Positions 17,743 to 44,353 of a stretch of DNA of 64,000 nt are shown here, piece by piece. Source of the DNA: Rhodocyclaceae bacterium. Lineage in GTDB: Bacteria; Pseudomonadota; Gammaproteobacteria; Burkholderiales; Rhodocyclaceae. The notes under the pieces are model-generated. The model ran no database searches. It was not told the DNA's origin and saw only the letters and a list, made by a program, of their open reading frames with translations. The stretch is from positions 554 to 64,553 of the forward strand of contig JBAQRB010000024.1 in NCBI GenBank assembly GCA_049295655.1. The letters run 5' to 3'. A program made the translations under genes and the position numbers. The stretch's first letter is position 1. Each line of letters begins with the position of its first letter.

Positions 17743-17764
17743 TACTTTTCAAGAAACGGTCTCG

Positions 17765-19435
17765 CTATTTCGCTGCCCCATCCCGCAATTCGCGACGCAG
17801 TATCTTGCCGACGTTGGTCTTCGGCAAGTCATCGCGGAATTCGACGCGATGCGGCACCTTGTAGGCGGTGAGGTTGTCGCGGCAATGGGCGATCAGCGCC
17901 TCGGCGGTCAATGACGGGTCCTTCCTGACTACGTAGATTTTCACCGCTTCGCCGGTTTTTTCGTCCGGCACCCCGACGGCAGCCACTTCCAGAATGCCGG
18001 GGTGCATGGCGACAACATCCTCGACTTCGTTCGGATACACATTGAAGCCCGAGACGAGGATCATGTCTTTCTTGCGATCGACGATGCGCACGAAGCCCTT
18101 GGCGTCCATCACGGCAACGTCGCCGGTCTTCAGGAAGCCGTCGGGCAGGAAGGCGAAGGCAGTCTCCTCGGGGCGCCGGTAGTAGCCCTTCATCACCTGC
18201 GGGCCGCGGATGCACAGTTCGCCGCGCTCGCCGAGTGCGACATCAACGCCGTAATCGTCGCGAATCGCCACTTCGGTCGACGAAATCGGCAGACCGATCG
18301 AGCCGTTGTATTCCGGAATGTCGAGCGGATTGATCGTCGCCGCCGGCGACGTCTCGGTCAGGCCGTAGGCTTCGATCAGCGGCTTGCCGGTGACCCGCTT
18401 CCATTTCTCGGCAACGGCCTTCTGGACGGCCATGCCGCCGCCTAGCGTGACTTTCAGCGGCCGAAAATCAAGCGCAGCAAACGCTTCGTTGTTGAGCAGC
18501 GCGTTGAACAGGGTATTGACGCCGGTAATCACCGTAAAGGGGTATTTTCCGAGCTCCGCGACAAAGCCGGGAATGTCGCGCGGATTGGTGATCAGCAGGT
18601 TGCTGGCGCCGATCTTGACAAAGGTGAAGCAGTTCGCGGTCAGCGCAAAGATGTGATAAAGCGGCAGCGCCGTGACGACCAACTCGGCGCCCTCCTGCAC
18701 CGCCGGCTTGATCCAGGCATGCGCCTGCGCCACGTTGGCCAGGATGTTGCGGTGCGTCAGCATCGCCCCCTTCGCAACGCCCGTTGTCCCGCCGGTATAT
18801 TGCAGGAAGGCAAGGTCTTCCTGCGTCACCTTGACCGGCTTGAAGCCGGCGCTCGCCCCCTGCGCCAGGGTCGCCTGAAAGTCGGTGCAGGCCGGCAGAT
18901 GCCAGGCGGGCACCATTTTCTTGATGTGCTTGACGACGAAATTGACGACCAGGCGCTTCGGAAAGCCGAGCATGTCGCCAAGCCGGGTCATGACGATGTG
19001 CCGGACCTGCGTCCTGGCGAGCACCGGCTCCAGCGTGTGCGCGAAATTCTCCAGGATGACGATCGCCTCGGCACCCGAATCCGCCAGCTGGTGCTCAAGC
19101 TCGCGCGGCGTATAGAGCGGATTGACATTGACCACCGTGTAACCGGCGCGCAAGGCCCCGAACATGCACACCGGGTACTGCAGCATGTTCGGCATCATGA
19201 TCGCAAGACGCGCGCCCTGCGGTAGCTTGAGCACGGATTGCAGGTACGCGGCAAAGTTGCGCGACTGAACGTCGAGCTCCGCATAGGTCAGGCTCGCGCC
19301 CATATTGATGTAAGCCACGCGATCGCCGTAACGGGCGACGCTTTTTTCGAACATCTCGCCAAGCGAGGCAAACTCGCTCAGATCGATTTCAGCAGGCACG
19401 CCGGCCTGATAGCTTTGCAGCCATATCTTGTCCAT
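17765..19435 (-). CDS. fadD: long-chain fatty acid--CoA ligase
   Basis: AMP-binding motifs ([20 protein letters not shown]; GYGLTETSP; [12 protein letters not shown]). ATG 19435 (MDKIWLQSY) is preceded by GGAGGAGA; the ORF track starts at 19483. Confidence 0.9.
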
Positions 19436-20047: not shown

Positions 20048-20295
20048 CCCCTCGGTTTGTACATCCAGCCTGAACGGGCCGGAATTCCACCATCAGATGT
20101 TATTCGATCTGGCTGCTTTCGGAAAGCATTCGTGCAGTCGCTCGCCGTACGCTCAGCGCACCATTCCCCGGCAAATGTCGCCGGATAGCAAAAAACGGAA
20201 GTAAACACGGGGTTTTTTACAAGCAAAAACCCGCCCGCTTCAGTTTGCCATTAAAATCCCGCGCAGCCGATTCTGAAAAAATTGAGGCACATAAT

Positions 20296-20988
20296 ATGGC
20301 GCAGGAAGATATCAGCTTTACCGATTTCATCGCATCATCGATTCATGACATGAAGAACTCGCTGAACATGCAGGTCAGCGCGCTGGAAAAAATTGCCGTT
20401 CAATGCCGGCAACAGGGTGATGCCCCGACCTTTGAAAGCCTTGGCCTGGTCATCTACCAGGCCAACCGGATGAATTCGAACCTGATTCAACTGCTCAGCC
20501 TCTACAAACTCGGCAAATCGATCTATCCGGTCGATATTGCAGAGCAATCCATCGCCGACCTGATCGAGGAAGCGCTGCTGCAAAACAAGTCGATCACCGA
20601 ATTCAAAGGAATATCGGTTTCGGTCGACTGCGATGCAAGTCTCTACTGGTACTTTGACCGGGACCTGCTGACCGGCGTTTTGATCAATGCCTTGAACAAC
20701 GCGTATAACTATACATCCGACAAAATCCGGGTTGCCGTCGGCATCGACGATGGCTATCTCGAACTTCGCGTCGAGGACAACGGCCAGGGCTACCCGGAAC
20801 ACATGCTGCTGAATGACGCGATTCTGGCGGACAAGGGCATCAGTTTCTCAAGCGGCAGCACCGGGCTTGGCTTCTACTTTTCCTCCCGGGTAGCGAAAAT
20901 GCACAAAAATGGCAACCGCCAAGGCTCTCTGACCATCGAAAATGGCGGCGCCTTTGGCGGTGGATGTTTCGTGCTCAGACTTCCATAG
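20296..20988 (+). CDS. cytoplasmic sensor-less histidine kinase
   Basis: H-box FIASSIHDMKNSLN, N-box LINALNNAYNY and G-boxes DNGQGYP..GSTGLGF. No TM or sensor domain. ATG 20296 is preferred over TTG 20245. The region is visibly AT-richer than its flanks. Confidence 0.8.
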   Translation: MAQEDISFTDFIASSIHDMKNSLNMQVSALEKIAVQCRQQGDAPTFESLGLVIYQANRMNSNLIQLLSLYKLGKSIYPVDIAEQSIADLIEEALLQNKSITEFKGISVSVDCDASLYWYFDRDLLTGVLINALNNAYNYTSDKIRVAVGIDDGYLELRVEDNGQGYPEHMLLNDAILADKGISFSSGSTGLGFYFSSRVAKMHKNGNRQGSLTIENGGAFGGGCFVLRLP

Positions 20989-21012
20989 CACGCTGGACGA
21001 AAGATACAGACG

Positions 21013-22626
21013 ATGACGCCTCACTTACAAGAAGCCAACATATTGATCATCGACGACTTCCAGGGCATGCGCACCATGCTCAGGAATTTCGTCAAAGCCA
21101 TGGGAGTCACCAAGGTCGACACCGCGGGTACCGGCAAGGAAGCCATGACCCAGCTGCGGGCCACCAAGTACGACATCGTGATTTGCGATTACAACCTCGG
21201 GGCCGGCCAGAACGGGCAGCAGATCCTGGAAGAGTCGAAACTGCGCAACTATATTGGCGTATCGACGATCTGGATGATGGTCACTGCGGAAAAGACCTCC
21301 GACATGGTCATGGGTGCCGCCGAAGTCAAACCCGACGACTATCTGCTCAAGCCGATCAACCAGGGCCTGCTGGAAAGCCGGCTGGAAAAGCTGATCGCCA
21401 AGAAGCAGTCTCTGAGCGGCATCGAAGCGGCGATCAGTGCGCAGAACTACCCTGCCGCCATTGTCCAGTGTGACCAGCAGCTAAGATCGAAGCCTTTGAA
21501 TCCGCAGGAAATCATGCGCATCAAGAGCGATCTGCTGTTGACCATCGGCGAGCACGAGGCCGCCAAAACGCTGTTCGAGGGAATTCTCGCCGTCCGCAGC
21601 ATTCCCTGGGCCAGAACAGGTCTGGGCAAGATCCATTTTCACGCCGGAGAACATCTGGCGGCAAAAAAAATCTTCGAGCAGGTCCTCGACGAGAACGGCA
21701 TGTACATGGAGGCCTCCGACTGGCTGGCAAAAACGCTGGCGATACTCGGTGAACACGAACGCGCCCAGGAAGTGCTGGTCGACGCCGTGAAGCGCTCGCC
21801 CAACTCGCCGACACGACAGAAACTTCTCGGCGATACGGCGCTCAAGAACGGGGCACTGGACGTCGCGCAGACCGCCTTTGAAAGAACGATCAAGATCAGC
21901 GAGTTTTCGCCGCACAAGAACCCGGCGGTGTACGCGGGACTGGCCAAGGTCTTTTCCGAAAAGGACTTGCCCGAGGAAGCCCTGAAAATCCTCGAGCGCA
22001 GCAAGGGGGATTTCAAGGACAACCCGGAGGCCGCGATACAGACCGCCGCCGCCGAAAGCGTCGTCTATAGCAAGATCGGCCAGACGGCCAAAGCCGAAGC
22101 GGCAATGGCCTCGGCCGAGCGCCTGATGGAATCACTGCCGAGCAAGGCGAGCGCCGAACTGACGATGGAAATAGCGACGTCGCTACTCAAGCTTGGAAAA
22201 AAAGACAAGGCTTGCGCCCTGCTGCGCGATGTGGTCAAAAACAACCATGAAAATACCGAAATATCGAGCCAGATCCAGGCGGTTTTCGATAACGAGCAGC
22301 TCGGCGAGGAAGGACTGACGCTCGTCAAGGAATCCCGTGAGGAAGTCGTCAACATCAACAACCAGGGCGTCATGCTGGCCAAGCAGGGCGAATTCCAGGA
22401 AGCGGCCAAGCTGCTGCGAAAGGCCGTCGAAAACCTGCCGAACAACGAAGTGATCATCATGAACCTGTGCGGCCTGCTGATCGGCTTGATGAAGCGGGAA
22501 GGGAAAAATGATGCGCTGGTGCTCGAAGCCAAAGGCCTGCTCGACCGGGTCCACGACTTGAACCCGGCCAACAAGAAATTTCATGAGTACGCAGCCGCGC
22601 TGGGCCGGATTGCGCAAGGAAAATAG
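21013..22626 (+). CDS. response regulator (REC) fused to TPR-repeat domain
   Basis: REC (ILIIDDFQGMRTML..IVICDYNLGAGQNG..LLKP) followed by ~400 aa of TPR-like helical repeats. Confidence 0.85.
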   Translation: MTPHLQEANILIIDDFQGMRTMLRNFVKAMGVTKVDTAGTGKEAMTQLRATKYDIVICDYNLGAGQNGQQILEESKLRNYIGVSTIWMMVTAEKTSDMVMGAAEVKPDDYLLKPINQGLLESRLEKLIAKKQSLSGIEAAISAQNYPAAIVQCDQQLRSKPLNPQEIMRIKSDLLLTIGEHEAAKTLFEGILAVRSIPWARTGLGKIHFHAGEHLAAKKIFEQVLDENGMYMEASDWLAKTLAILGEHERAQEVLVDAVKRSPNSPTRQKLLGDTALKNGALDVAQTAFERTIKISEFSPHKNPAVYAGLAKVFSEKDLPEEALKILERSKGDFKDNPEAAIQTAAAESVVYSKIGQTAKAEAAMASAERLMESLPSKASAELTMEIATSLLKLGKKDKACALLRDVVKNNHENTEISSQIQAVFDNEQLGEEGLTLVKESREEVVNINNQGVMLAKQGEFQEAAKLLRKAVENLPNNEVIIMNLCGLLIGLMKREGKNDALVLEAKGLLDRVHDLNPANKKFHEYAAALGRIAQGK

Positions 22627-30714: not shown

Positions 30715-31755
30715 TCACTCCGCCGGCTGCCGAACCGGCAGCGTGATGCGGAAAGCGGTTCCCTTGCCCACCTCGCTGGACACCTCGATTCGCCCGTGGT
30801 GCTTCTGCACGATGCCATAGGACAGCGACAGGCCGAGCCCGGTCCCCTGCCCGATCGGCTTGGTGGTAAAAAATGGGTCAAAAATCTTCTGCATGTTTTC
30901 CGGTGGAATGCCGCAGCCATCGTCGGCGATTTCGATCCATACGGTGTCGTGATCGCCCATTCCGCTGCGCACGAAAATCTTGCCGCGCCGCTCGCTGCTC
31001 ATGGCGTGCGCCGAGTTGACCAGCAGGTTCATGAAAATCTGATTCAGTTGCGAGGCCATGCACTCGACCTGCGGAATATCGCCATATTCCTTGACGACGT
31101 CGGCCTTGTAACGGATTTCGTTGGCGACGATATTGAGCGTCGAATCGATGCCCTGATGCAGATCGGCCCAGAGATACTTCCCTTCGTCGGTATGCGAGAA
31201 GTCCTTCAGATCCTGAACGATCTTCTTCACCCGGTCGATGCCTTCTTTCGATTCGGCGAGGATCGCCAGCATGTCGGTTTTCAGGTAATCGACATCCAGC
31301 CGTCGACGGAGCTCGGCCAGCGCATCGCGTTCGGCCTGCGGCAAAGCGGCCTCCGCCGACTCGTAGGCAGCGATCAACTCGAGCAGGTCGCCGGCATAGT
31401 CGCCCAGCGTTGACAGGTTCGAATTGACGTAGCCAATCGGGTTGTTGATTTCGTGCGCCACCCCCGCCGCCAGCTGGCCGATCGACGCCATTTTCTCGGA
31501 TTGCAGCAACTGGTTGTGTGCCTGCTCGAGCTTGCCGATCAGTACGGTCTGCTCGTCTTTCTCGCGCAGCAGCGCTTCGTGGCGCTGCGTCAACTCGCTC
31601 GACATGATATCCAGCGAGCGCTCGACCAGCACTCTGTCGCTATCGGCCTTGCCGTAGGCTTCATTGACCGCGGCAATGAAGGCGTGCCAGTTCTCTGGAA
31701 TATCCTTGAGGGAACCAAAATTCCGCCGGATCTGGCGTTCAAGCAAGCGATGCAT
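30715..31755 (-). CDS. cytoplasmic histidine kinase (short N-terminus, HisKA + HATPase)
   Basis: H-box [23 protein letters not shown] and G-boxes [22 protein letters not shown] lies 7 nt upstream of ATG 31755. It is a paralogue of the kinases at 34099 and 37836. Confidence 0.85.
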
Positions 31756-31859
31756 TTTTTACTCCAGAAGTTTCGCGCCGTCAGTTTTCCGCCTCGCCAT
31801 GACAATCGCTGTTTTTTCAGTTACCGCCCGACTGCTCGCGCCGCGCCGGAGCGCGGCTC

Positions 31860-34091
31860 TTATTCCGGTTCCGGCCCGAGGACGCGGAGCACTTCCGCGA
31901 GGCTCGTCTCACCGAGCGAAACCTTCTTCCAGGCATCGACCCACAGCGATTCATGGCCACTCGAACGCGCGTGCGCGGCGATCTCCTTGATGCTGGCACT
32001 GCGCGCAATCAGGTCGCGCATGGCTTCATCCGGCAACAGTATTTCGTACAACCCGAGCCGGCCGCGGTAACCGCTGCCGGCGCATTCGGCGCAACCCAGC
32101 CCGACGAAGCTGGCGACCGGCTGGGAGCGGAAAAGTGGGCCGAGGCGCGCGGCTGCCGCGGCATCGAAGGCGATTTCATGGCGGCAGTGGCGGCAGATCC
32201 GGCGTACCAGCCGCTGCGCGATGACGCCCTCGAGCGCGCTGGCCACGATGAAGGGTTTCAGACCGAGATCGAGCAGGCGGGCAATCGTCGCCAGCGCCGA
32301 ATTGGTATGCAGCGTGGATAACACCTGATGGCCGGTCAACGCTGCGTGAAACGCCACCTCGGCCGTTTCGAAGTCGCGAATCTCGCCGATCAGCACGACA
32401 TCCGGATCCTGCCGCAGGATCGAGCGCAGCACCACCGGAAAGGATAGCCCGATCTTCTCGCGGACCAGCACCTGACCAGCCATGTCGAGGTAGTACTCGA
32501 CCGGATCCTCGATCGTGATGTAGTTCTTGGTGGGCGAAGCATTGGCCTGCAGCAATGAATACAGGGTGGTCGTCTTGCCGCTGCCAGTCGGCCCGGTGGC
32601 CAGCAGCAGGCCTTGCGGCTTGTCGACCATGGCCCGTACCTTGACCAACCCGTTCTCGCCGAAACCGAGCCCGGCCAGACTGAGTACCGCCGAATTACGG
32701 TCGAGGATGCGCATGACCACTTTTTCACCGTTGATCGTCGGCAGCGTCGAGATACGCAGATCGACGATGCGGACCGGCGACTTGACCGTAAGGCGCCCGT
32801 CCTGCGGCCGGCGGCGCTCCGAGATGTCGAGCTCGGCCATGATCTTCAGGCGGGAGACCAGCGGACTGTGCAGCGCGTGGGGAATGTGGATCTTGTCGTG
32901 CAGGACGCCATCGATACGCAGCCGCACCACGACGTTCTTGGTGCGCGGCTGGATGTGGATGTCGGATGCGCCGAGGCGCATGGCCTCGAGAATAATCGCG
33001 TTGGCCAGCCGGATGGCCGGCAGTTCGATGCACGAGGCCAGCAGTTCGTCGAGCGGCACGTTGTCCTCGTCGTCGATGACGATCTCGATGCCTTCGTAGG
33101 GATCGACGCTGCCGGCCAGGGTCTCGAGGTCGCGGATGTCGACGCCGTCGCTGTCGCCGTACACCTCGACAATTTTAGCGCGGATGGCCGCGGCGTCAGC
33201 CATCACTACCTTGAGGTCGAGTCCGGCGGTGAACCGGACATCGTCGATCAGGCCGGCGTCCATCGGGTCGGCGACCGCCAGCATCAGCCGGCGACCTTCG
33301 AGCTTGAGCGGCACGACCAGTTGTTTGTCGCAGAAGCTGCGCGGAATCAGCTCGGCGACGACGCTATCGACGCGAAATTCGCTGAGCGCCACTTCCTCGA
33401 CCAGCAGGTCTTCGCGCAAAATCTTGCGCAGCGACTTCTCGGCGACCCAGCCGCGATCGAGCAGCAGCTTGATCAGCGGCTCCTTGTGGATGCCCTGCAG
33501 GCGAGTCAGCTCCTGCAACTGCGCGCTGGACAGCAGATTCTTCTTGTGCAGCATCATGCCGAGCTGGCTGCGGTTGGAGACAGCGAGGCGCGAGAGCGCC
33601 GTGATCTCCTTCGACTTCTTGGCATTCTCGAGGCTGAGCGCCCGGTTCTTCTGCACCAGATCGAACTGCTCCAGCGCCAACGCGACCGTCACCCGCAGAT
33701 CATCGTCGTTCCACGGCTTGAGGATGAATTTGTAGACGGCGCCCTCGTTGACGGCGCCCATCACCGCCCCGGTGTCGGCATGGCCGGTGAGCATGATGCG
33801 CAGGGTATCCGGATGGCGGTGCTTGACCTCCTTGAGCAACTCGGCGCCGTTCATGCCGGGCATCATGTAGTCGCTGATCACGACATGGACCGGCGCCTCA
33901 GTCAGCCGCTCCAGCGCCTCCTTGCTGTCGCCGGCGGTGAGAACCTCATAAGCTTCGGAACGGAACGTACGGGTCAGCGCCTTGAGAATACCGGGCTCGT
34001 CGTCGACGATCAGGATGCGATAACGTTTCGCCGGCGCAGTCTCGTGCGGCGCGTCGCCTTGTCCGGTGAAATAGGCGGCGTAGTTGCTCAT
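31860..34091 (-). CDS. REC - T2SSE_N/MshEN-like - GspE/PilB-family secretion-type ATPase fusion
   Basis: N-terminal REC (ILIVDDEPGILKAL..VISDYMMPGMNG..FILKPWNDDDL). Central LGMMLHKKNLLSSAQLQELTRLQ-type repeats. Walker A GPTGSGKTTT, Walker B DPDVVLIGEIRD, His box LSTLHTNSA and tetra-Cys CRHC..CAEC. Confidence 0.9.
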   Translation of the reverse strand: MSNYAAYFTGQGDAPHETAPAKRYRILIVDDEPGILKALTRTFRSEAYEVLTAGDSKEALERLTEAPVHVVISDYMMPGMNGAELLKEVKHRHPDTLRIMLTGHADTGAVMGAVNEGAVYKFILKPWNDDDLRVTVALALEQFDLVQKNRALSLENAKKSKEITALSRLAVSNRSQLGMMLHKKNLLSSAQLQELTRLQGIHKEPLIKLLLDRGWVAEKSLRKILREDLLVEEVALSEFRVDSVVAELIPRSFCDKQLVVPLKLEGRRLMLAVADPMDAGLIDDVRFTAGLDLKVVMADAAAIRAKIVEVYGDSDGVDIRDLETLAGSVDPYEGIEIVIDDEDNVPLDELLASCIELPAIRLANAIILEAMRLGASDIHIQPRTKNVVVRLRIDGVLHDKIHIPHALHSPLVSRLKIMAELDISERRRPQDGRLTVKSPVRIVDLRISTLPTINGEKVVMRILDRNSAVLSLAGLGFGENGLVKVRAMVDKPQGLLLATGPTGSGKTTTLYSLLQANASPTKNYITIEDPVEYYLDMAGQVLVREKIGLSFPVVLRSILRQDPDVVLIGEIRDFETAEVAFHAALTGHQVLSTLHTNSALATIARLLDLGLKPFIVASALEGVIAQRLVRRICRHCRHEIAFDAAAAARLGPLFRSQPVASFVGLGCAECAGSGYRGRLGLYEILLPDEAMRDLIARSASIKEIAAHARSSGHESLWVDAWKKVSLGETSLAEVLRVLGPEPE

Positions 34092-34098
34092 TGTCCAC

Positions 34099-35292
34099 TC
34101 ATACAGGGAGTTCGATCATCACCGTCGTGCCACCTTCGATCGGATTGAGCACCGACAGCGAACCGCTGTGCGCGAGAATGATGTCGCGCGCCACCGTCAG
34201 CCCAAGTCCGCTGCCGCTACCCACCGCGCGGGTGGTAAAAAAAGGATCGAAGACTCGCGGCATCACGTCTTCCGGGATGCCCGGGCCGTTATCCGCAATG
34301 CGCACCGTGATCCGCTCGGCAGTCGCCCGCGTGCAAACGCTGACCCGACCCTGCTCGCCGACCGCCAGCAGGGCGTTCTGCAGGATATTGAGAAAGGCCT
34401 GGTTGAGGTGGCCGGGCAGGCACAGCAGGGGCGGCAGCGCGGCAAAATCGGCGTCGAGGGTCACACCAGCCGGTTTTTGCCCGCCGATCACCGAAAGCAG
34501 CGATTCGAGCTGCGCGTTGAGATCGACGATCTGCTCGTCGGGCTGGTCGATGCTGGAAAACCCCTTGAGATCCTTGACGATGCGCGCGATGCGATCGATT
34601 CCGGCGCGCGAATCCTTGAACAGTTCGGCAAAGTCATCGAGCGCGAAGTCGAGGTCAAGTGCCTTCCATGCCTCGGCAGGCACCGACGGGCGAAGCTCGG
34701 CAAAATCGGCGACGTAGCGCTCGGCCGACGACAGATTGCTGCTGATGAAACCGAGCGGATTGTTGATTTCGTGCGCCACACCGGCTGCCAGCTGACCGAT
34801 CGAGGCGAGGCGCTCGGCCTGATAGAGCTGGCGTTGCCGCTCGTCGATAATCACCAATTGCTCCTTGACCTTGGCATCGAGCGCTTCAGACAGTTCACGG
34901 TATCTCGTTTCAGAGGCTTTCAGCGCTGCGTTCTGCTGTTGCAGCTTGGCGTAGTCGGCGCGGATGGCCTCCATGTGCAGATCGGAAACCATGCGAAAGC
35001 GGGCGCGCGAGAGCAGCCCCCAGCGTACGGCGCGGGCGGCGGCGGCCAGCGCTTCGGGCGCGCAGGCGCAGGCGAGAAACCCCACCGGCTCGAGTTCCAG
35101 GATCAGCGGCGCGCGGAGCGTGCCGGCGAGAAGCGGGCTATCGGCACCGCCAAAGCGCACCCCACCCGCGTCGAGCACCGCCACCGGGCTGCCCAGCATG
35201 GCCTGCAGGGCCGTCGCCATCTCGTCGGCGTCCCGGATCGTGATCAGATCGTCGAGGATGAAGTCACGGTCGAAGGCGACGTCGCTGCTCAT
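34099..35292 (-). CDS. histidine kinase with uncharacterised ~150-aa N-terminal domain
   Basis: H-box [23 protein letters not shown] and G-boxes DNGPGIP..GSGSGLGL. ATG 35292 overlaps the stop of the upstream GTPase gene (ATGA); the ORF track starts at 35337. Confidence 0.85.
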   Translation of the reverse strand: MSSDVAFDRDFILDDLITIRDADEMATALQAMLGSPVAVLDAGGVRFGGADSPLLAGTLRAPLILELEPVGFLACACAPEALAAAARAVRWGLLSRARFRMVSDLHMEAIRADYAKLQQQNAALKASETRYRELSEALDAKVKEQLVIIDERQRQLYQAERLASIGQLAAGVAHEINNPLGFISSNLSSAERYVADFAELRPSVPAEAWKALDLDFALDDFAELFKDSRAGIDRIARIVKDLKGFSSIDQPDEQIVDLNAQLESLLSVIGGQKPAGVTLDADFAALPPLLCLPGHLNQAFLNILQNALLAVGEQGRVSVCTRATAERITVRIADNGPGIPEDVMPRVFDPFFTTRAVGSGSGLGLTVARDIILAHSGSLSVLNPIEGGTTVMIELPV

Positions 35293-35945
35293 GCGGGGGC
35301 TCCGCCGATCACTGCGGCGACGAAGCGGTCTTCGCACAGCCCGTGCTCACGGGCCAGGCCAAACTCGTCCGCGTAGCGTTGCCAGACGCCGTGGAGCAGC
35401 GCGGCGCAGGTTTCACGCACCCCCTGCCCCTGGACTGCCGCCGAAAATATCAGCGGCCACGGCGCCCCGGCGTAACGCTTGCGGATCTCGTCCTCGGGCA
35501 GGATGTCCTGCAGGTCGCGCTTGTTGAACTGGACAACGAGCGGCAAACGATCGAGGTCAAGGCCGACCCGCGCGAGGTTCTCGACGAGATTGTCGAACGC
35601 CTCGCCGTTATTGGTCGACTGCGTGCGCTGCGAATCGGCGACAAAAACCACGCCGTCGGCCCGCGACAACACCGCCTTGCGGGTGCCGTCATGCGCCACT
35701 TGCCCAGGCACCGTAAATAGACGAAAACGGATGGTCAGCCCCGACGAGGTACGAAAGCCGAGCGGTAGGAGGTCAAAAAACAGCGTACGGTCGTGCTGCG
35801 TCTCGAGCGTCATCAATTCCCCCTTCATTTCGGCGCCGACCAGATCGTGCAACTGCATCAGGTTGGTCGTCTTGCCGCTCTGCGCCGGCCCGTAATAGAC
35901 CAGTTTGAAGGTGAGGCGATTGGCCTCGCGCACAAGTTCCGGCAT
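35289..35945 (-). CDS. MglA-family Ras-like small GTPase
   Basis: Collinear with Myxococcus MglA as I recall it: KLVYYGPAQSGKTTNL (G1), DRTLFFDLLPL, LFTVPGQV (MglA-type G3), VVFVADSQ, QFNKRDL (G4). ATG 35945 shares 1 nt with the upstream stop (TGATG). Confidence 0.85.
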   Translation of the reverse strand: MPELVREANRLTFKLVYYGPAQSGKTTNLMQLHDLVGAEMKGELMTLETQHDRTLFFDLLPLGFRTSSGLTIRFRLFTVPGQVAHDGTRKAVLSRADGVVFVADSQRTQSTNNGEAFDNLVENLARVGLDLDRLPLVVQFNKRDLQDILPEDEIRKRYAGAPWPLIFSAAVQGQGVRETCAALLHGVWQRYADEFGLAREHGLCEDRFVAAVIGGAPA

Positions 35946-36523
35946 CAGGGCCGCTCCCGCGCCTGAACTTGTTCCTCGGCATCGAACAGGGACTCGTCGA
36001 GCAGAACCGAACCGTCCGGCCCCCATTTGACCTTGGTAATCCCCGGCTCGTCGGCTTCCAGACGCTGCATTTCGATTTCCTCGACGCTCATGTCGCCCTG
36101 CAGCAGGCGCGCCTCGTCGGCCAGACGGCGGTCTTCAAGGAGTTGCTCGTGCCGCGTCAAACCCAGCCTGACCGTGGCCACCAGATTGTCGTCGTCCCAC
36201 GGCTTGGTGAGATAGCGAAAAATTTCGGCCTCATTGAGCGCGCTCATCAGCGCATCGAAATCGGTCGATGCCGAAAGAATCAGGCGCACGCTATCCGGCT
36301 GCAACTGCCGTACTCTCTTCAAAAAGGTTACCCCATCCATCGGCGGCATGCGGAAGTCGGAGATGACCAGATCGAACATCGTGTTACCGAGCCGCTCAAG
36401 CGCCAAACGCGGGTCGTCGAACGTCTCGAGATGCAGATCTTCGCCGGCGAAGGCACGCTGCAGCGTGCGGCGCAACGCCCTGAGCACGTTGTTTTCGTCG
36501 TCTACGATCAGCATTCGTTTCAT
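35945..36523 (-). CDS. single-domain response regulator with ~70-aa acidic C-terminal tail
   Basis: REC (MLIVDDENNVLRAL..VISDFRMPPMDG..YLTKPWDDDNL). ATG 36523 lies 2 nt after the upstream stop; GTG 36529 is an alternative. Confidence 0.85.
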   Translation of the reverse strand: MKRMLIVDDENNVLRALRRTLQRAFAGEDLHLETFDDPRLALERLGNTMFDLVISDFRMPPMDGVTFLKRVRQLQPDSVRLILSASTDFDALMSALNEAEIFRYLTKPWDDDNLVATVRLGLTRHEQLLEDRRLADEARLLQGDMSVEEIEMQRLEADEPGITKVKWGPDGSVLLDESLFDAEEQVQARERP

Positions 36524-36525
36524 TT

Positions 36526-37839
36526 TCACTTCCGCTCTGGGCGAACATAAATCGTCAGACGGACGCCCTCGCTCGCCTCGAAATCCTGAATCTGGCGGAT
36601 CAGGTTGGCGTCGAGCATGTAGTCTGCGGCGAGCAGCAGGACGCCGCTCCGGCTGACCAGATCGCGCGCCATCGCCATGCCCGGCTTCAACTCGGCCGCC
36701 ATCAGCGCAATCTCGTTACGGTGTTCCTGCTCGACGCTGCCGGTGATCTGCAGAAAGGCATCGACCACCTGCGGATCGTAGCGCTTGCCGCGCCCATCGA
36801 CGATCAGCTTCTTCGCGTCTTCCGGATTGAGGCGGCGCGCGGCGACGATGCCGATCTGCAAGCCGTCGAAATCATTCACCAGCGCCAGAATGCGCGCGCC
36901 GATCGGGATCGCCAGCCCGGCCACGCCGTCCGGATACCCTTGCCCGTCGAAACGCTCGTGGTGCGAGCGGATCAGTTTGGCGACGCCGCGCAGTTCGGCC
37001 AGCGCCATCAGCGATTGCTCGCCCTTGACCGGATGCTTGCGATACAGCCCGAGGTCTTCGCCACTCATCTGCGTCACCGCTCTGCTCAGCAACGCGTCGG
37101 GCAAGCCGATCTTGCCGATGTCATGCAACAGACCGGCCACGAACACGTCCTGCGCATCGCGCGGGGAAAGTTCGAGCTTGTTGGCAATTTTGCGCGAAAG
37201 GTCAGCGACCCGACGCGAATGACCGGCGAGCGTGCTCTCGCGCAGGTCGATCAGATTGGCAAAGACCTTGATCGACGTCAGGAAGCTCGTCTTCAGCTTT
37301 TCGTTGGCAGCGGCCAGTTCGGCGGTACGCGCCTCGACTTTGCTCTCCAGGCTGGCGTTGAGCGCCTTGAGTTCCTCGTTCTGGCGCAGCGTCAGCGCTT
37401 CGAGACGCGTCTTCTCGCGCTCCAGCGCCTTGCGTTCGAGCGCATGGCGGACGATCAGCAACATATCGTTGTCGTCCCACGGCTTCGATATATAGCGAAA
37501 GATCTGGCCCTTGTTGATCGCATCGACGGTCGAGGCGATATCGGCATAGCCGGTGAGCAGGATGCGGACCGTCTCCGGCCAGCGTGCACGCACCTGCTCG
37601 AGAAAGCGTGCGCCATCCATCTCGGGCATGCGCATGTCCGAGATGACCAGGTCGAAATGTTCGTTCTCCAGCGCCTGCAGGCCCTCGGCACCGCTATTGG
37701 CGACCACCACCTGATAGGCGCTCTGGCGGAACAGCCGGCGCAGCGACGAAAGGATATTCGGTTCGTCGTCAACGCACAGCAAGCGCCAAGGTGCCGTTGT
37801 CTCATTCCCGGCTTCCCCGGGGTTTGTCGTTTCGCTCAT
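36526..37839 (-). CDS. response regulator with HD-GYP output domain
   Basis: REC (LLCVDDEPNILSSL..VISDMRMPEMDG..YISKPWDDNDM), a coiled coil, then HD-GYP (LLHDIGKIGLP..HHERFDGQGYP). ATG 37839 overlaps the upstream kinase stop (ATGA). The first 126 codons of the ORF-track entry are rejected. Confidence 0.9.
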   Translation of the reverse strand: MSETTNPGEAGNETTAPWRLLCVDDEPNILSSLRRLFRQSAYQVVVANSGAEGLQALENEHFDLVISDMRMPEMDGARFLEQVRARWPETVRILLTGYADIASTVDAINKGQIFRYISKPWDDNDMLLIVRHALERKALEREKTRLEALTLRQNEELKALNASLESKVEARTAELAAANEKLKTSFLTSIKVFANLIDLRESTLAGHSRRVADLSRKIANKLELSPRDAQDVFVAGLLHDIGKIGLPDALLSRAVTQMSGEDLGLYRKHPVKGEQSLMALAELRGVAKLIRSHHERFDGQGYPDGVAGLAIPIGARILALVNDFDGLQIGIVAARRLNPEDAKKLIVDGRGKRYDPQVVDAFLQITGSVEQEHRNEIALMAAELKPGMAMARDLVSRSGVLLLAADYMLDANLIRQIQDFEASEGVRLTIYVRPERK

Positions 37840-39686
37840 AGTGACCAGTCGGGCTCGGGCGTCGATCCGTTCGTCGGTTCGGTGTGTTTGATCGGTAGCG
37901 TAATGCGGAAGGTCGTTCCCTTGCCGACCTCGCTCTTCACCGTCAGATGTCCGTTGTGATTCTGGATAATGCCGTAGGACAAGGACAGGCCAAGCCCCGT
38001 CCCCTTGCCGACCGGCTTGGTGGTAAAGAACGGATCGAATATTTTCGGCAGGACATCGGCGGGAATACCGCTGCCGGTATCGGCGATTTCGATCCACACG
38101 TTGGCGCCGGTACACCCGCTGCGGATGGTTATCTTGCCGCGCACATTGTCGCTCATGGCGTGCGCGGCGTTGACACAGAGATTCATGATCACCTGGTTGA
38201 TCTGCGACGGCAGGCACTCGACGTCGGGCAGGTCGCCGTACTCCTTGAGCACATCGGCCTTGTACTTGATCTCGTTGGCGACGATGTTGAGCGTCGAGTC
38301 GATGCCATGATGCAGATTCGCCAACTGGTACTGATCGGTACTGTCGACGTGCGAGAAGTCTTTCAGGTCCTGGACGATTTTCTTGACCCGGCTGATCCCT
38401 TCCTTCGATTCCTTCATCAACAGCGGGATATCCTCGCGCAGAAATCCGATGTCGAACGCCTTGTGCAGGGCTTTCACCGTCTCCGACGCTTCGTCCGCCT
38501 CGTAGGCGGCGAGCAGGGTAAAGACGTCATCGAGATATTTTTCCAGCGCACAGATATTCGAATGCACGTAACCGATCGGGTTGTTGATCTCATGCGCGAC
38601 GCCGGCTGCCAGCTGGCCGATCGACGCCAGCTTCTCCGCCTGCACGAGCTGCTGCTTGGCTTCCGAGAGCCGGGTATTGAGTTCGCTGACCTCGGTGTAG
38701 CGTTTGCGCAGCTCCTGCTCGGTCGCTTCGCGGCGCTCGATATCTTCGGCCAGCATTTTGTTGCTCGCTGCCAGCTGCTGCGTCCGGCGTTCGACGAGTT
38801 CCTCGAGCCCGGCTTGCGCCTTGCGTAATTTCTCTTCGGCCAGCCGGCGCTCGGTGACATCCTGCAAGGTTTCAATGGCACCGATGATGCGGCCCTCGGC
38901 GTCGCGCAGGGGCGCTGCGGTAAAGAACAGCCAGCGACCGCCAGTGCCGAAATGCGGAAAAAAATCCTCGGCTTCGTACGCCCCGGTCGCCACCGTCGAG
39001 CGCTTGAACTTGCTGTGATAAAGGCTGCCGAACTCCGCTTCGATGACGCCATCAACCACCAGGTCGGCCATTACCGGACGCTCGGCGGGGTAGAAGGGCT
39101 GCCATTGCCGGCGGGTTCCCAGCAGGTCGATTGCCGGCACGCCGGTAATTTCCGCGCAGGCCTTGTTCCAGTGCGTAATCTGGTGCCGTTCATTGATGAC
39201 CAGGGTCGGTACCGGGTTGCCATCGATGATTTGCCCGAGCACCTGCTGCATGTGGCGCTGCACGGCATCGGCACGTTTGCGCTCGGTCATGTCGGTTAGC
39301 GAGGCGACGACCGTCGGCATTCCATCCAGATCCAGCAAGGCCAGGTTGGCCTCGACCCAATGTTCCAGACCATCCTTCGCCGCAAGCCGAAATTCGTAGC
39401 GTGGCACCACCGCCTCGCCGCGCAGGCGCGCCATGCCGCGCTGCCGGATGAGGTCACGCGCGTCGGGATGGGCGATCTGATCGAAATCCATCGCCAGCAG
39501 TTCGTCGCGGCCAAAACCGGTCAGCACCTCGAGTGCCGTGTTGGCGTAGAGAATGTGGGCACCGCGGTGCAGCATGATCGCCGCCCCGATTGCCTCGATC
39601 AGATTGAGACAGGCCGGATCCGGACTTGCCGATTGCTCGGCGACAGACTTCGCTGCTGTTTGCGCTTGCTCCACACTCCCCCCCAT
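37836..39686 (-). CDS. multi-PAS cytoplasmic sensor histidine kinase
   Basis: Two to three PAS-like regions, H-box [23 protein letters not shown] and G-boxes [16 protein letters not shown]. Confidence 0.9.
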
Positions 39687-39692: not shown

Positions 39693-40577
39693 TCAGCCTA
39701 CCAGCATTTCGCAGCCCCCCGCGAACTGTGTTTCAACCTCGCTGAAAATTTCCTGATAGTCGTCCTCGCCAAGCGCCAAAGAGTCCCAAACGACACTCGA
39801 CAGCGGCGGAACGAAACAATACCCGTTTTTGGCAAATTCAAGGGCATGGGCAATCGCATCGGCGATGTGCACGATACCTGAGAGCGGCGTGTGCACGCCG
39901 GCCTCCAGCAGGTGATGTCGGCCAACGGCTTCCTGGATCAGGGGCGGAAAGTTCCAGTGCGCGGCCAGTACTTCTCCGATCATGGCATGATCGACACCGA
40001 GCACGTCGCGTTCCGCCTCCAGCAACAGGCAATCGCACTCGGCGCGATAGGCCAGCACTGCCGCGAGATGCGCAGGAAAGCACGAAGCCAGCACCAGACG
40101 GCCGACATCGTGCAGCAACGCGGCGGTGAAGGCGTTCTCCTCGCTTATCTGCGTCCGCCGGGCAAGCGCTTTCGCACACAGCGCCGTGCCCATGCAGTGT
40201 CGCCAGAAACCGTGAAAATCGAAACCCGGCACCGCGTTGTGGCTGGTAAAGCTGCCGGTGACCGCCGCCGCCATCGCCAGCGTACGCACGCTCCGCATGC
40301 CCAGAACGACGATCACGTCCTGGATCGAGGAAACCTTGCCCTGCAGGCCGTAAAACGACGAATTGGCGACGCGCAGCATCTTCGCCACGAGGGCCTGATC
40401 GGACGCAATCTTCTTGGCGAGCAGATGGGTGTCGACGTTGTCGTCGGAAAGGCTCTGGATCAACTCGAGAATCACCGCCGGCAGTGAAGGAAGCGTCCCG
40501 ATCTGGCCGACCACCTGCGCCAAATCGAGTTTCATGGCCGGCGCCGACAGCCCTTCTCGCGCATTGCGCAGCGTCAT
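39693..40577 (-). CDS. HDOD domain protein
   Basis: 294 aa with the typical HDOD N-terminus (LPSLPAVILELIQSL..D..LAKKIASDQALVAKMLRVANSSFYG) and a degenerate HD region (LLHDVGRLVL). Confidence 0.85.
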   Translation of the reverse strand: MTLRNAREGLSAPAMKLDLAQVVGQIGTLPSLPAVILELIQSLSDDNVDTHLLAKKIASDQALVAKMLRVANSSFYGLQGKVSSIQDVIVVLGMRSVRTLAMAAAVTGSFTSHNAVPGFDFHGFWRHCMGTALCAKALARRTQISEENAFTAALLHDVGRLVLASCFPAHLAAVLAYRAECDCLLLEAERDVLGVDHAMIGEVLAAHWNFPPLIQEAVGRHHLLEAGVHTPLSGIVHIADAIAHALEFAKNGYCFVPPLSSVVWDSLALGEDDYQEIFSEVETQFAGGCEMLVG

Positions 40578-40769: not shown

Positions 40770-41603
40770 TCAATAGACAAACAGCATCAGCTTGCCATGG
40801 GACTGGGAATGTTCGCCCATCACGCGGCAAGTCACCCGCCAATCACGTCCATCATCCAGCCAAACGATCGTGCTGCCGTCACCGGCCGTCAGCAGTGCTT
40901 GCAGAGCGTCCGGCAAACGCTCTTTGGCAAAGCTGCCGACCAGCGGCTGACCTTTGGCGATCACGCGTTCGGCCTCGATATTGGCAAAAACGATCATTCC
41001 CTCGTCGTCAAAGCCGATGACCGGCAAAGGCACGCGCTGCAGGATTTCCTGCGCGACGTTGAGCGTCACATTGTCGATCGCCAGCTGCCTCTCGCGCTCG
41101 GCAAGCAAGACGCGCAACTGCTCGTTGACCACCGCCAGCCCCCAGTTGGCGCGTTGAATCTCCTCGTTCAAGCGCAAATTGTCATCGGCAAGTTCCTTGT
41201 GCCGAAAGGCCTCGGCGATATTGGCGCGCAGCTGTTCGTCATCCCACGGTTTGGTCAGGAATTTGTAGATCGCCCCCTCGTTGATCGCATCGGTGATCGA
41301 CTGCAACTCGGTATATCCCGACAGCACCATGCGCACGGTATCGGGATAAGACTCCTTGACGCGACGCAGAAACTCGACGCCCGTCATGTTCGGCATGCGC
41401 TGGTCGGAGAGGATGACGTCGACCCGATGCTGCTCCAGCAATTCAAGCCCTTGCGCGCCGCCGTTGGCAATCAGGATTTCATACCCCTCCCGGCGCAGCA
41501 GACGGCGCAGGGAGGTCAGGATGTTTTCCTCGTCATCGACGAGCAGCAAGGTGCGTTTGCGCACCACGTCGGTCGCAGATTCGGCGTTTGTCATGTCGCT
41601 CAT
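40770..41603 (-). CDS. response regulator (REC + coiled coil + PAS-like C-terminal domain)
   Basis: REC (LLLVDDEENILTSL..ILSDQRMPNMTG..FLTKPWDDEQL). ATG 41603 is chosen; the ORF track starts at 41735 in a low-quality region. Confidence 0.85.
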   Translation of the reverse strand: MSDMTNAESATDVVRKRTLLLVDDEENILTSLRRLLRREGYEILIANGGAQGLELLEQHRVDVILSDQRMPNMTGVEFLRRVKESYPDTVRMVLSGYTELQSITDAINEGAIYKFLTKPWDDEQLRANIAEAFRHKELADDNLRLNEEIQRANWGLAVVNEQLRVLLAERERQLAIDNVTLNVAQEILQRVPLPVIGFDDEGMIVFANIEAERVIAKGQPLVGSFAKERLPDALQALLTAGDGSTIVWLDDGRDWRVTCRVMGEHSQSHGKLMLFVY

Positions 41604-41987
41604 GTTTTCCCCGTTCGCACGATGTGCCAAAACACTATATACCCAAGCCGCCACCAGCGACAAACGAACCCGGAAACGATTTTCCCGCCCGCGCTTGCGA
41701 CGGACAGATTCGAGCCTGGAATGCGGCAGAACCATGACAGAAGTATAGGTCCTGCAGCAATACCTCGTCGGACATCATTTTCTTCGGAAAAAGGCAGATG
41801 AGGGCGTTCATCTTTTCGCCGGCACCGCCCAGCCAAGAGGCACGAGGACGGGCGATCGGAAAAGAGCGGGACGTCCGTTCATCAAGCATGGCGGCGGACG
41901 GCAACTGACCGCTGTCGACAAAATTTCCTTCCCGGTCTCCAAAGCGAACATATCGGGCCATGCACGCGGAGCGAAAGTTCGCGAAGC

Positions 41988-44249
41988 TTACCCCTCTCCC
42001 GCAGGCACGGCGAGCGATGCGCGTGCCGCTATTTCCTGAGCATAATGAATAAAGGCTTCGTGAATCTGTTCGCGCAGCTCGTCGTCGTCCCATGGCTTGG
42101 TCAGGAAACGGAAAATGGCGCCGTGATTGATCGCATTGGTCAGCGAAGCCAGATCGCTGTAGCCTGAGAGCACCATGCGCACGGTTCGTGGATAAAGCGC
42201 TTTGACGCGGCTGAGAAACTCGGTTCCGTTCATGTACGGCATGCGCTGGTCGGAAACGATCACCTGCACCTCGTTCAATGCCAGCAGTTCGAGTGCGGCA
42301 GCACCGGAAGTGGCGCACAGAATGCGGTAACCGCTGTGCCGCAGCAGACGTTTCAGTGTATTCAGGATATCTTCCTCGTCGTCGACGAGGAGCAGCGTGC
42401 GTAGCGCGGGGTCTGCCTCAGCGCTGCTCAGCGGCAGGTGCTCGGCGCGCTCGATGAAGTCGCGAAAGCCATCGGCCGGCAGCGGTTGCGAGAAGAAATA
42501 GCCCTGTAACTGTTCGCAATTCTGCTGGCGCAGATAGCGCATCTGGCTTTCGGTTTCGACGCCCTCGGCCACCACGTACAGCCCCAGGCTGTGCGCCATG
42601 GCGATGACGGCAATGGCGATCAATGCATCGTCGGGTTCGGTGGTGATGTTCTGTACGAAGGAGCGGTCGATCTTCAGGCAATCGAACGGAAAGCGCTTGA
42701 GGTAACCGAGGCTGGAATAGCCAGTGCCGAAATCGTCCATCGCCAGACTGACGCCAAGCGCCTTGAGTCGCCGCAGCACACTCTCCGCCGTATCGAGATT
42801 CTGCATGACCATCGACTCGGTCACTTCGATCTGTAGCCATTTCGGGGCAAGACCGGCATCACCCAGCGCCGATGCGACGATCTCGACGATATTTTCCTGC
42901 CGGCACTGGCGCGCCGAAAGGTTGACCGCAATGGTCAGCGCCTGCAAGCCCTCGCGTTGCCAACGCGCCGCTTGCAGGCAGGCTTCGCGCAATACCCATT
43001 CGCCGATCGGCAGGATGATTCCCGACTCTTCGGCGAGCGGAATGAAGTGGGCCGGCAGAACCAGACCTTTCGCCGGATGCTGCCAGCGAATCAGCGCCTC
43101 GGCGCCGCAGATCTCGCCGGAATACAGATCGGCCTTGGGCTGATAATAAAGCTTCAGTTCGCCGCGCTCCAGCGCACCACGCAAGCCGGCTTCAAGCTCG
43201 GCCTCCTCCTGGGCGCGCTCGTTCATCACCTGTGCGTAACAGTTGAAACCGTTGCGCCCGCCGGCCTTGACCTGATACATGGCAAGATCGGCCAGGCGCA
43301 GCAGCGACGGCGCATCGCTCGCGTCCTGCGGATAAAAGCTGATGCCAATGCTGGGCGTGACGAACAACTCGCGGCCATCGAGATCGAAAGGCTGCGCCAA
43401 CAAGGCGAGTAATTTTCGGGCGAGCATCGTCGCGTCTTCATGCCGGGCCAGCTCGCTCAACACGAGAACGAACTCGTCGCCGCCGATGCGGGCAACGGTA
43501 TCGCCTTCGCGAACGCTTCCCTCTAGGCGTGTCGCCACGGCCTTCAACAGGCTGTCGCCAAGGCTGTGGCCCAGGCTGTCATTCACCTGCTTGAAGCGAT
43601 CCAGATCGATCAACAGGACGGCGGCGATGCTCCCGTCGCGCGCACTGTGCGTGACGGCCTGCGTCAGCCGGTCGGCGAGCAGCGTGCGGTTGGCCAAACC
43701 GGTCAGCATATCGTGGGTGGCCAGATACGCTACCTGGCTATCCCGGAATACCTGCTCGCTGACGTCGTCAAGAATGCTGACATAATGACCGATCGCCCCC
43801 TGGGCGTCGGGCGCCGGCACGACGGAAAGCTGGTTCCAGAAGGACGAACCGTCCTTGCGGCAGCACTGCACCATGGCCTGCCCCGAGTCATGCGAGCGCA
43901 ATGCGTGCCGGATGACGTCAAGTGCCGGCTGGTCGAGCGCCTCGCCGAGCAGGAAATGCGCGCTGCGACCGATCGCCTCTTTTGCCGGATAACCGGTGAT
44001 GCGCTCAAAAGCCGGGTTAACGTAGATAATCGGGTGCTGCGGCGCCACGGCATCGGTCATCATGATGCCATTGGACGATGACTCGACGGCGCGTACAAAC
44101 AACTGTAAGCAACGCCATGCCGCCTCGCTGTGCGTGCCAGCCGCCGGCGCTCCCGACAGCGCGCGCAGCAGGGACGATGCATCGAAGCGCTGCCCGCCTT
44201 CGGGGCTATCGAGAAAATCCTTCAGTGCATCGGAGATCGGCATGGTCAT
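41988..44249 (-). CDS. PAS - GGDEF - EAL - REC multidomain c-di-GMP turnover protein
   Basis: PAS regions. An intact GGDEF (ARIGGDEFVLVL) is preceded by RxxD (REGD). Intact EAL (GAEALIRW, DDFGTGYSSL). C-terminal REC (LLLVDDEEDILNTL..IVSDQRMPYMNG..FLTKPWDDDEL). The start is uncertain (ATG 44249/44243 or TTG 44279). Confidence 0.9.
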   Translation of the reverse strand: MTMPISDALKDFLDSPEGGQRFDASSLLRALSGAPAAGTHSEAAWRCLQLFVRAVESSSNGIMMTDAVAPQHPIIYVNPAFERITGYPAKEAIGRSAHFLLGEALDQPALDVIRHALRSHDSGQAMVQCCRKDGSSFWNQLSVVPAPDAQGAIGHYVSILDDVSEQVFRDSQVAYLATHDMLTGLANRTLLADRLTQAVTHSARDGSIAAVLLIDLDRFKQVNDSLGHSLGDSLLKAVATRLEGSVREGDTVARIGGDEFVLVLSELARHEDATMLARKLLALLAQPFDLDGRELFVTPSIGISFYPQDASDAPSLLRLADLAMYQVKAGGRNGFNCYAQVMNERAQEEAELEAGLRGALERGELKLYYQPKADLYSGEICGAEALIRWQHPAKGLVLPAHFIPLAEESGIILPIGEWVLREACLQAARWQREGLQALTIAVNLSARQCRQENIVEIVASALGDAGLAPKWLQIEVTESMVMQNLDTAESVLRRLKALGVSLAMDDFGTGYSSLGYLKRFPFDCLKIDRSFVQNITTEPDDALIAIAVIAMAHSLGLYVVAEGVETESQMRYLRQQNCEQLQGYFFSQPLPADGFRDFIERAEHLPLSSAEADPALRTLLLVDDEEDILNTLKRLLRHSGYRILCATSGAAALELLALNEVQVIVSDQRMPYMNGTEFLSRVKALYPRTVRMVLSGYSDLASLTNAINHGAIFRFLTKPWDDDELREQIHEAFIHYAQEIAARASLAVPAGEG

Positions 44250-44353
44250 TGCGATGGGTCTATCAACTGAGGCAATCAATAGGTAGAAATATTCTCACTT
44301 ACCAAAGGGCAGTGTAAAGCAAATGCGCGACACGAAACGCGCAAGCGTCCGTC

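Follow-up and report, generated by a model that had tools for sequence, protein, structure and literature searches.

The window analysed here is a stretch of 64,000 nucleotides from the draft genome of a Rhodocyclaceae bacterium (positions 554 to 64,553 of contig JBAQRB010000024.1, a 67-kb contig referred to below as C24). It contains, on the reverse strand, a gene encoding an ATPase of the GspE/PilB family that carries a receiver (REC) domain at its N-terminus; this gene and its product, called the fusion hereafter, are the subject of this report. The open reading frame (ORF) starts with an ATG codon, and this start assignment is considered right because the N-terminal sequence MxxYxxxFTG is conserved among the orthologues. 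The gene and the parts of its product are located as follows.

31860..34091, reverse strand: REC-MshEN-T2SSE ATPase gene, 743 aa (from the ORF, Pfam and orthologues)
33684..34016, reverse strand: receiver domain (REC), residues 26-136 (Pfam PF00072, 2e-25)
33408..33566, reverse strand: degenerate MshEN_N four-helix module, residues 176-228, in the layout 24 + 5 + 24 (NF053729 match, motif scoring and model)
33147..33392, reverse strand: MshEN C-subdomain or N1 domain, residues 234-315 (Pfam PF05157, 7.5e-19)
31884..33020, reverse strand: GspE/PilB ATPase core (T2SSE; N2 and C-terminal domain), residues 358-736 (Pfam PF00437, 3.9e-123)

The order of domains given in the preliminary description of this DNA, an intact REC domain followed by an MshEN region and a complete GspE/PilB ATPase, was confirmed by the Pfam and motif searches. 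The receiver scores 89.6 bits against PF00072, for which the gathering cutoff is 30.2, and its best NCBIfam match is the model of the REC domain plus linker of HD-GYP response regulators (175 bits). The residues D30 and D31 of the acidic pocket, the phospho-acceptor D74 (within VISDYMMPGMNG), T102 and the pair K125-P126 are all present, and they are invariant both in alignment A1, which includes relatives down to 36% identity, and in alignment A3. The acidic pocket, whose integrity had been raised as a point to be checked, is therefore intact, as are the switch residues. The ATPase core contains the Walker A motif at residues 500-507 (GPTGSGKT at 500), the Asp box at 525-533 (IEDPVE at 527), the Walker B motif at 562-573 (DPDVVLIGEIRD at 562) and the His box at 586-597 (TGHQVLSTLHTN at 586). 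Additionally, the arginine motif of the N2 domain (RRRPQDGR at 426) and the zinc tetracysteine motif of the GspE/PilB subgroup (C633, C636, C667 and C670) were identified, and all these elements are invariant across 38 orthologues.

Solved full-length PilB structures match residues 173-738 of the fusion in the PDB sequence search. An intact REC domain, a full set of ATPase motifs and this match together indicate a complete PilB-like protein to which a receiver has been joined at the N-terminus. In the predicted full-length model, the REC domain is followed by a long helix, a four-helix bundle, the N1 domain, a disordered linker, the N2 domain and the C-terminal domain; the long helix comprises 42 residues and runs from alpha-5 of the REC domain into the N-terminal bundle. 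On the basis of its sequence, the gene product is a response regulator with a complete PilB/GspE-family ATPase as its output domain, and it is predicted to be catalytically competent.

The fusion belongs to a cluster of genes on the reverse strand, which are given below in the order of transcription; the fusion itself is located between the last two.

41988..44279, reverse strand: PAS-GGDEF-EAL-REC protein, head of the cluster (Pfam; its REC is 44% identical to that of the fusion)
40770-41735, reverse strand: REC protein, second in the cluster, with a C-terminal half to which no domain was assigned
39693..40577, reverse strand: HDOD protein (Pfam HDOD, 2e-59), kept in distant loci
37836..39686, reverse strand: soluble PAS-PAS histidine kinase (Pfam; H-box common to the other two kinases)
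36526..37839, reverse strand: REC-HD-GYP protein, putative phosphodiesterase of cyclic di-guanosine monophosphate (c-di-GMP) (Pfam HD_5 and REC; its REC is 41% identical to that of the fusion)
35945..36523, reverse strand: single-domain REC protein with an acidic C-terminal tail (Pfam REC; 40% identical to that of the fusion)
35289..35945, reverse strand: MglA-family small GTPase, 218 aa (PDB match to MglA, E = 9e-46)
34099..35292, reverse strand: soluble histidine kinase with a family-specific GAF-like N-domain (Pfam HisKA and HATPase_c)
30715..31755, reverse strand: short soluble histidine kinase, 104 nucleotides downstream of the ATPase gene (Pfam)

The junctions from the PAS-PAS kinase gene to the ATPase gene are an ATGA overlap (-4), a gap of +2, a TGATG overlap (-1) that joins the single-domain REC gene to mglA, an ATGA overlap (-4) that joins mglA to the kinase gene, and a gap of +7 nucleotides between the stop codon of this upstream kinase and the start of the ATPase gene. 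No transmembrane segments were found in the proteins of the operon. The ATPase is translationally coupled to the upstream soluble kinase and MglA, and its gene is the last of a conserved operon of cytoplasmic signalling proteins. The four REC domains of the cassette that were compared share 40-44% identity with one another, and one H-box is common to the three kinases, which suggests a branched phosphorelay. The kinase encoded immediately upstream is presumed to be the cognate kinase of the ATPase receiver. Control of the ATPase by phosphorylation, as proposed in the preliminary description, is well supported at the level of prediction, given an acidic pocket that is intact and invariant and a kinase gene that ends 7 nucleotides upstream.

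The N-terminal domain of the upstream kinase, of approximately 100 residues (window 34888-35292; FDRE...ELEPxGyL...ARYxMASxLHxE), has no Pfam match. The AlphaFold2 model of this domain (predicted local distance difference test, pLDDT, 93.6) shows a small alpha-beta4 domain and, after it, a long helix, and a Foldseek search with it gave weak GAF-like matches (CodY, E about 0.01, TM 0.4-0.5). An MglB-like domain fused to the kinase was considered and rejected, because this confident model yields the weak GAF-like matches and no Roadblock fold. The domain seems to be specific to the kinases of the MglA-kinase-ATPase cassette.

The GTPase matches the MglA proteins of Thermus thermophilus and Myxococcus xanthus in the PDB, both the intrinsic Arg finger and the catalytic Gln being kept. 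The motifs DRTLFFD and TVPGQV align, and the aspartate-less PGQ form of the G3 motif is present. By these motifs the protein is a genuine MglA of the Group-1 type (grouping according to PMC4316618), and it is encoded by the single mglA gene of this genome. A Roadblock/MglB protein (PF03259) was not found in the genome, which is 96.6% complete. The gene neighbourhood of the Rup Group 1 GTPases (a coiled-coil protein and an OmpA-domain protein) was also compared and differs from the one observed here; a Rup identity of the GTPase was rejected.

In order to follow the gene neighbourhood across genomes, a scan of species-representative genomes was queried with the fusion-specific N-terminal half of the protein, and 80 loci were returned from Rhodocyclales, Sulfuricellaceae, Gallionellaceae, Methylophilaceae, Hydrogenophilales, Formivibrio, Noviherbaspirillum and several gammaproteobacterial groups. 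Synteny was counted in the 72 scan loci that had sufficient upstream sequence: the MglA and kinase genes are both located directly upstream of the fusion in 70 of them, and the kinase gene in 71. The core gene order was also observed in genomes of Sulfuricella, Azoarcus and Methylotenera, and the REC-HD-GYP gene is kept upstream in most fusion loci. Co-occurrence was analysed in 200 genomes drawn evenly from the order as defined in GTDB. The fusion is present in 16 of them, one copy each, from 12 genera; MglA is present in 14 of these 16, always on the same contig at a distance of approximately 2 kb, and in none of the 184 genomes without the fusion. The confinement of MglA to fusion genomes indicates that the ATPase and MglA form an evolutionary unit. 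The triad of MglA, histidine kinase and REC-ATPase is near-invariant across many genera of beta- and gammaproteobacteria, and within the sampled order MglA is found only beside the fusion.

The genome, a draft in 324 contigs, encodes seven ATPases of the GspE/PilB type, listed here by contig.

C24: the fusion, REC-MshEN-T2SSE (window 31860-34091)
C42: true PilB, beside pilC and pilD
C200: TfpB equivalog
C130: orphan MshE-like ATPase with an intact c-di-GMP motif (74 bits)
C34/C170: MshE-like gene broken at the ends of two contigs, with a secretin gene on one side and a platform gene on the other
C233: GspE-like ATPase, with a platform gene
C109: GAF-MshEN-T2SSE ATPase

The fusion remains below the equivalog cutoffs of TIGR02538 for the PilB of type IVa pili (526.2 versus 675.65) and of TIGR02533 for GspE (521.2 versus 630.25), as well as below that of TfpB; the true PilB of this genome scores 818 on TIGR02538. 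The phylogenetic placement of the ATPase core, which the preliminary description had left to be done, was obtained by maximum likelihood. The fusion is located in a clade of N-terminally receiver-fused proteins (support 100/99), separate from the PilB, TfpB, MshE-like, GspE-like and GAF-fused ATPases of the same genome. Assignment of this clade as sister to PilB, GspE or MshE was rejected, the backbone of the tree being an unresolved polytomy and the NCBIfam scores for PilB and GspE being nearly equal. In the same tree, other receiver fusions, including those at the C-terminus, are of independent origin, and two members of the receiver-fused clade (P0127 and P0128) have lost the receiver secondarily. 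Full-length orthologues of 740-750 aa and 67-93% identity are found in Azoarcus, Aromatoleum, Azospira, Denitratisoma, Sulfuricella, Sulfurimicrobium and Methylotenera, under generic names in the databases. In seven distant members of the receiver-fused clade (P0122, P0123, P0125, P0126, P0130, P0132 and P0140) a C-terminal extension of approximately 60 residues with two CxxC...CPxC pairs was observed, which looks like a double zinc ribbon; it is absent from the subfamily of the window ATPase.

The region between the REC and N1 domains was analysed separately, as the preliminary description had proposed that the ATPase is also under c-di-GMP control. Two helical segments, residues 176-199 and 205-228, are joined by the five-residue spacer GIHKE, and both are in full register with the NCBIfam model of the MshE c-di-GMP motif, NF053729 (model positions 1-52 of 53). 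The arrangement 24 + 5 + 24 is that of the MshEN_N c-di-GMP site (PMC5013675), and four helices are predicted at residues 176-229. The segments match 14 of the 22 MshEN_N consensus positions, whereas the best windows of shuffled sequences match at most 12 and the MshE-like paralogues of the same genome match 17 and 19. The score on NF053729 is 29.9 bits, below the cutoff of 38; the orthologues score 19-26 bits, and the two MshE-like paralogues 62 and 74 bits. In all orthologues examined, the Arg at position 1 is replaced in both motifs, and in motif 2 Gly3 is replaced by Ile or Val and Gln24 by Asp or Glu. The module thus appears, from its sequence, to be homologous to MshEN_N and to have retained its shape, and yet to be consistently degenerate as a c-di-GMP site. 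Direct control by c-di-GMP is doubtful, and a link to c-di-GMP is more likely to be made via the neighbouring enzymes than by direct binding.

Taken together, we favour the reading, at a probability of roughly 0.55, that the fusion is a response regulator with a competent PilB/GspE output, encoded by the last gene of a conserved operon, and that it is a paralogue of PilB which is switched by phosphorylation and acts on type IVa pili. D74 would be the residue phosphorylated by the upstream kinase, and the signal would pass via the 42-residue helix into the N-terminal bundle, where it might alter oligomerisation or the arrangement of the N-domains and so switch the ATPase. MglA, here without MglB, could modulate either the kinase or the motor, and the HD-GYP, GGDEF-EAL and HDOD neighbours would tie the pathway to c-di-GMP indirectly. 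In the last and weakest step, the target would be the type IVa pilus machine, which the ATPase would serve as an extension motor engaged under certain conditions or as its regulator.

The link to type IVa pili comes from three observations, none of them strong. All 16 fusion genomes contain PilM; the polarity of type IV pili is regulated by Group 1 MglA proteins in Myxococcus, Bdellovibrio and Thermus (PMC4316618); and in one genome, G172, an orthologue of the fusion (62% identical) immediately follows pilA, the gene of the major pilin, and a TPR gene, with genes for a GAF-ATPase and a GAF-HD-GYP protein on the other side of pilA (L111:978-7926). Several results weigh against this reading. PilM also occurs in approximately 80% of the genomes without the fusion, so that its presence in 16/16 is weak evidence for the link. 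The adjacency to pilA is confined to a single genus, that of G172 and G040, where the fusion itself is without MglA and kinase; no pilin gene was found beside the fusion in the other loci among the 85 fusion loci screened for pilins, 84 of which have no pilin, platform or alignment gene near the fusion. Every GspF-type platform examined, in this genome and in five other fusion genomes, has its own adjacent ATPase. The tree, with its polytomy at the backbone, gives no support for descent from PilB proper. In P0124 and P0153, related-cluster representatives of the same clade, the Walker A motif reads GPADSGKL or GPADSGRS and the Asp box, Walker B motif and His box are degenerate while the receiver is intact; these proteins look like pseudo-ATPases, and some relatives can therefore not act as motors. 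Moreover, the confidence of the full-length model is moderate (pLDDT 70; predicted template modelling score 0.44), and the literature search returned no functional study of a REC-MshEN-T2SSE or GAF-MshEN-T2SSE protein.

Part of this evidence would equally suit a protein that does not dock on a machine at all, the PilB-type body having been co-opted as an output or scaffold of an MglA/two-component pathway that signals through nucleotide-dependent conformational changes, for instance in the control of exopolysaccharide or biofilm. The fusion never lies beside machine genes in the 80 scan loci, the platforms examined are already provided with ATPases, and the degenerate relatives P0124 and P0153 have kept their REC domains; as a precedent, M. 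xanthus PilB is reported to be a signalling protein for exopolysaccharide production (PMC5544727). Against it stands the full invariance, within the clade of the fusion, of the Walker A and B motifs, the Asp and His boxes, the N2 arginine motif, the N1 domain and the tetracysteine, which is as expected of a working motor that docks on partners; the pilA neighbour in one lineage and the association with MglA likewise point to pili. We regard a purely signalling role as a serious rival, although on balance an unlikely one. Somewhat less probable still is a motor with two inputs, in which the MshEN_N module binds c-di-GMP at physiological levels and the ATPase integrates this signal with phosphorylation. 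The register of the two motifs and their spacer, the many c-di-GMP enzymes of the operon and the observation of Wang et al. that imperfect MshEN motifs can still bind (PMC5013675) would agree with it, whereas the sub-threshold profile scores of the fusion and its orthologues, far from those of the MshE-like paralogues, and the loss of Arg1, Gly3 and Gln24 described above do not; the replacements are similar in extent to those listed for the non-binder XpsE (PMC5013675).

The preliminary description had also considered that the fusion might simply be a displaced component of a pilus or type II secretion locus lacking its own ATPase, and had reported the absence of machine genes around it. This absence was confirmed and extended: in whole-genome family searches, contig C24 gave no match to a T2SSF platform, a secretin, an N_methyl pilin or an A24 peptidase, so that over 30 kb on either side of the fusion contains none of them. 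PilC, GspF, PilQ, PilM, PilT and CpaF were likewise absent within 10 kb on either side in all 80 scan loci, the set to which the screening for PilC, PilQ, PilM, PilT and CpaF was restricted. A locus without its own ATPase does exist in the genome. The MSHA-type locus on C86 (C86:13884-17402 and 13277-17829) has the order mshJ-K-L(secretin)-M(ExeA-like)-N(TPR) and ends after the mshN-like gene without mshE, mshG or mshF, being followed on the opposite strand by a comF-like gene and bioB. On its face this locus is of the kind that the preliminary description had named as a refutation of its reading; the genome moreover contains five secretins, one of them on C166, as compared with only four platform loci, and it is a draft in many contigs. 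However, the C86-type secretin does not co-occur preferentially with the fusion (6 of 16 fusion genomes versus 55 of 184 others), and on these counts the fusion was rejected as the missing motor of the C86 locus; the orphan MshE-like ATPase on C130, with its c-di-GMP motif, suits that locus better. A platform would be missing there too, and the synteny of the fusion itself is conserved across many genera. We therefore reject the displaced-component reading, for C86 and for the C166 secretin, as highly improbable, and the view of the preliminary description that the fusion is not simply such a component is supported by the 70/72 and 0/80 counts given above. The five other fusion genomes carry the same surplus set of REC-fused, GAF-fused and TfpB-type ATPases; none of the five lacks platforms, each having at least two beside their own ATPases, a result that does not discriminate between the readings.

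The domain order of the fusion is already on record. Wang et al. 2016 tabulated 'REC - MshEN - T2SSE' (Nat Commun 7:12481, PMC5013675, Suppl. Table 4; example Gmet_3473), with a beta-, gamma- and deltaproteobacterial range that fits the fusion, and 'GAF - MshEN - T2SSE' in the same architecture table. This entry is a table row only, which mentions neither function and neighbourhood nor the degenerate c-di-GMP site and the linkage to MglA and a kinase. The literature search likewise did not find a paper on an MglA-kinase-ATPase gene cluster. Thus, while the architecture has been catalogued, two features appear to be undescribed, namely the obligate cassette of MglA, kinase and motor and a c-di-GMP site that has decayed consistently.

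Comparison with better-known ATPases gives the following picture. Like MshE of Vibrio cholerae and PA14_29490 of Pseudomonas aeruginosa, the fusion has an MshEN_N module of 24 + 5 + 24 residues, followed by N1, N2 and the ATPase domain; unlike them, it has an additional N-terminal REC, replaced binding residues, a sub-threshold profile score and no msh or gsp operon. Its best matches among solved structures are PilB proteins of type IVa pili (Geobacter 5TSG/6OLJ and Myxococcus 3JC8; residues 173-738, E about 1e-127), with which it has all catalytic motifs in common, but it falls short of the PilB equivalog cutoff (526 against 676 bits), is not located beside pilC or pilD and belongs to a clade separate from the true PilB of the genome.

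The M. xanthus MglA/MglB module (with RomR, FrzS, PilB and PilT) likewise combines a Group-1 MglA having the Arg finger and Gln with receivers and a PilB-type ATPase in one pathway (PMC4316618). Here, by contrast, the genome yielded no MglB/Roadblock protein, the ATPase itself carries the receiver, and the usual position of mglB is occupied by the cassette kinase, whose N-domain is GAF-like and not Roadblock. In the actinobacterial conservon (CvnA kinase, CvnB Roadblock, CvnC and CvnD GTPase) an MglA-family GTPase is also encoded together with a histidine kinase, with which it is presumed to act (PMC4316618), but its GTPase belongs to a different MglA group, a Roadblock protein is included, and there is no counterpart of the ATPase as response regulator output. 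PATAN-REC proteins of Synechocystis and PilG/PilH of P. aeruginosa also place a type IV pilus motor under two-component control (bioRxiv 10.1101/2021.06.11.447907; PMC10519157); these act in trans, whereas the receiver of the fusion is covalently attached to the motor and has a dedicated kinase, not of the Che type, encoded immediately upstream. A tentative extension of the favoured reading, well short of it in probability, is that the triad forms a self-contained switch, not described before, in which a Ras-like GTPase without MglB gates a dedicated histidine kinase whose phosphoryl group directly toggles a PilB-type motor. Such a switch, running from GTPase to kinase to motor, would be the beta- and gammaproteobacterial counterpart of the Myxococcus polarity module, and through it the extension of type IV pili would be controlled in space or according to conditions.

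The fusion is of wider interest in several respects. The receiver is built into the motor and hard-wired to a kinase and to the sole MglA of the genome, and the carriers include environmentally important denitrifiers, sulfur oxidisers and floc formers such as Aromatoleum, Dechloromonas, Zoogloea, Sulfuricella and Gallionella. What determines the time and place of type IV pilus extension is understood in few model species only, and the known controls act in trans, namely c-di-GMP on MshE, PilZ/FimX, PilG/PilH, and MglA via adaptor proteins. If the wiring is as proposed here, crosstalk between a small GTPase and a two-component system, the working of MglA without MglB and the switching of a PilB hexamer by phosphorylation would all become testable, and part of the 'surplus' of PilB-like ATPases in many genomes would be explained.

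A second sensor-fused PilB-type ATPase, the GAF-MshEN-T2SSE protein, is located at a pilin locus of this genome (C109:29525-33763, up to 34478), where genes for a PP2C phosphatase, an FHA protein, an MBL-type cyclic-nucleotide phosphodiesterase, the GAF-ATPase and a GAF-HD-GYP protein are followed by pilA, at which the contig ends. This gene order is common to the present genome and the unrelated genus of G172. Two large CHASE2-like proteins are encoded upstream of the C109 cluster.

Two features of the assembly were observed during the inventory of motor genes. The 5' part of the split MshE-like gene (C34:14739-16193) follows a secretin gene and a TPR gene, and its 3' end (C170:12527-12748) precedes a GspF platform gene; contigs C34 and C170 probably join at this gene. 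A second, near-identical pilT-pilU pair (C315:75-1697, on a 1.7-kb contig, versus C178:14062-16451) suggests strain heterogeneity or a collapsed assembly duplicate.

At the 3' side of the fusion, a perfect GC-rich hairpin (GCCGCGC-n4-GCGCGGC) is located at window 31840-31857, directly after the ATPase stop codon, with no U-run behind it on the coding strand. This hairpin may reduce read-through to the kinase gene downstream; a scan for terminators between the two genes was not above chance (3 sites versus 2.0 +- 1.3 expected). The short downstream kinase is limited to some lineages and also occurs in the Azoarcus/Aromatoleum loci. Elsewhere in the window, a further REC-HD-GYP gene was observed at 14636-15751 (reverse strand), and a gene for a sensorless kinase followed by one for a REC-TPR protein at 20245-22626 (forward strand); receiver proteins are unusually dense in this stretch of DNA.

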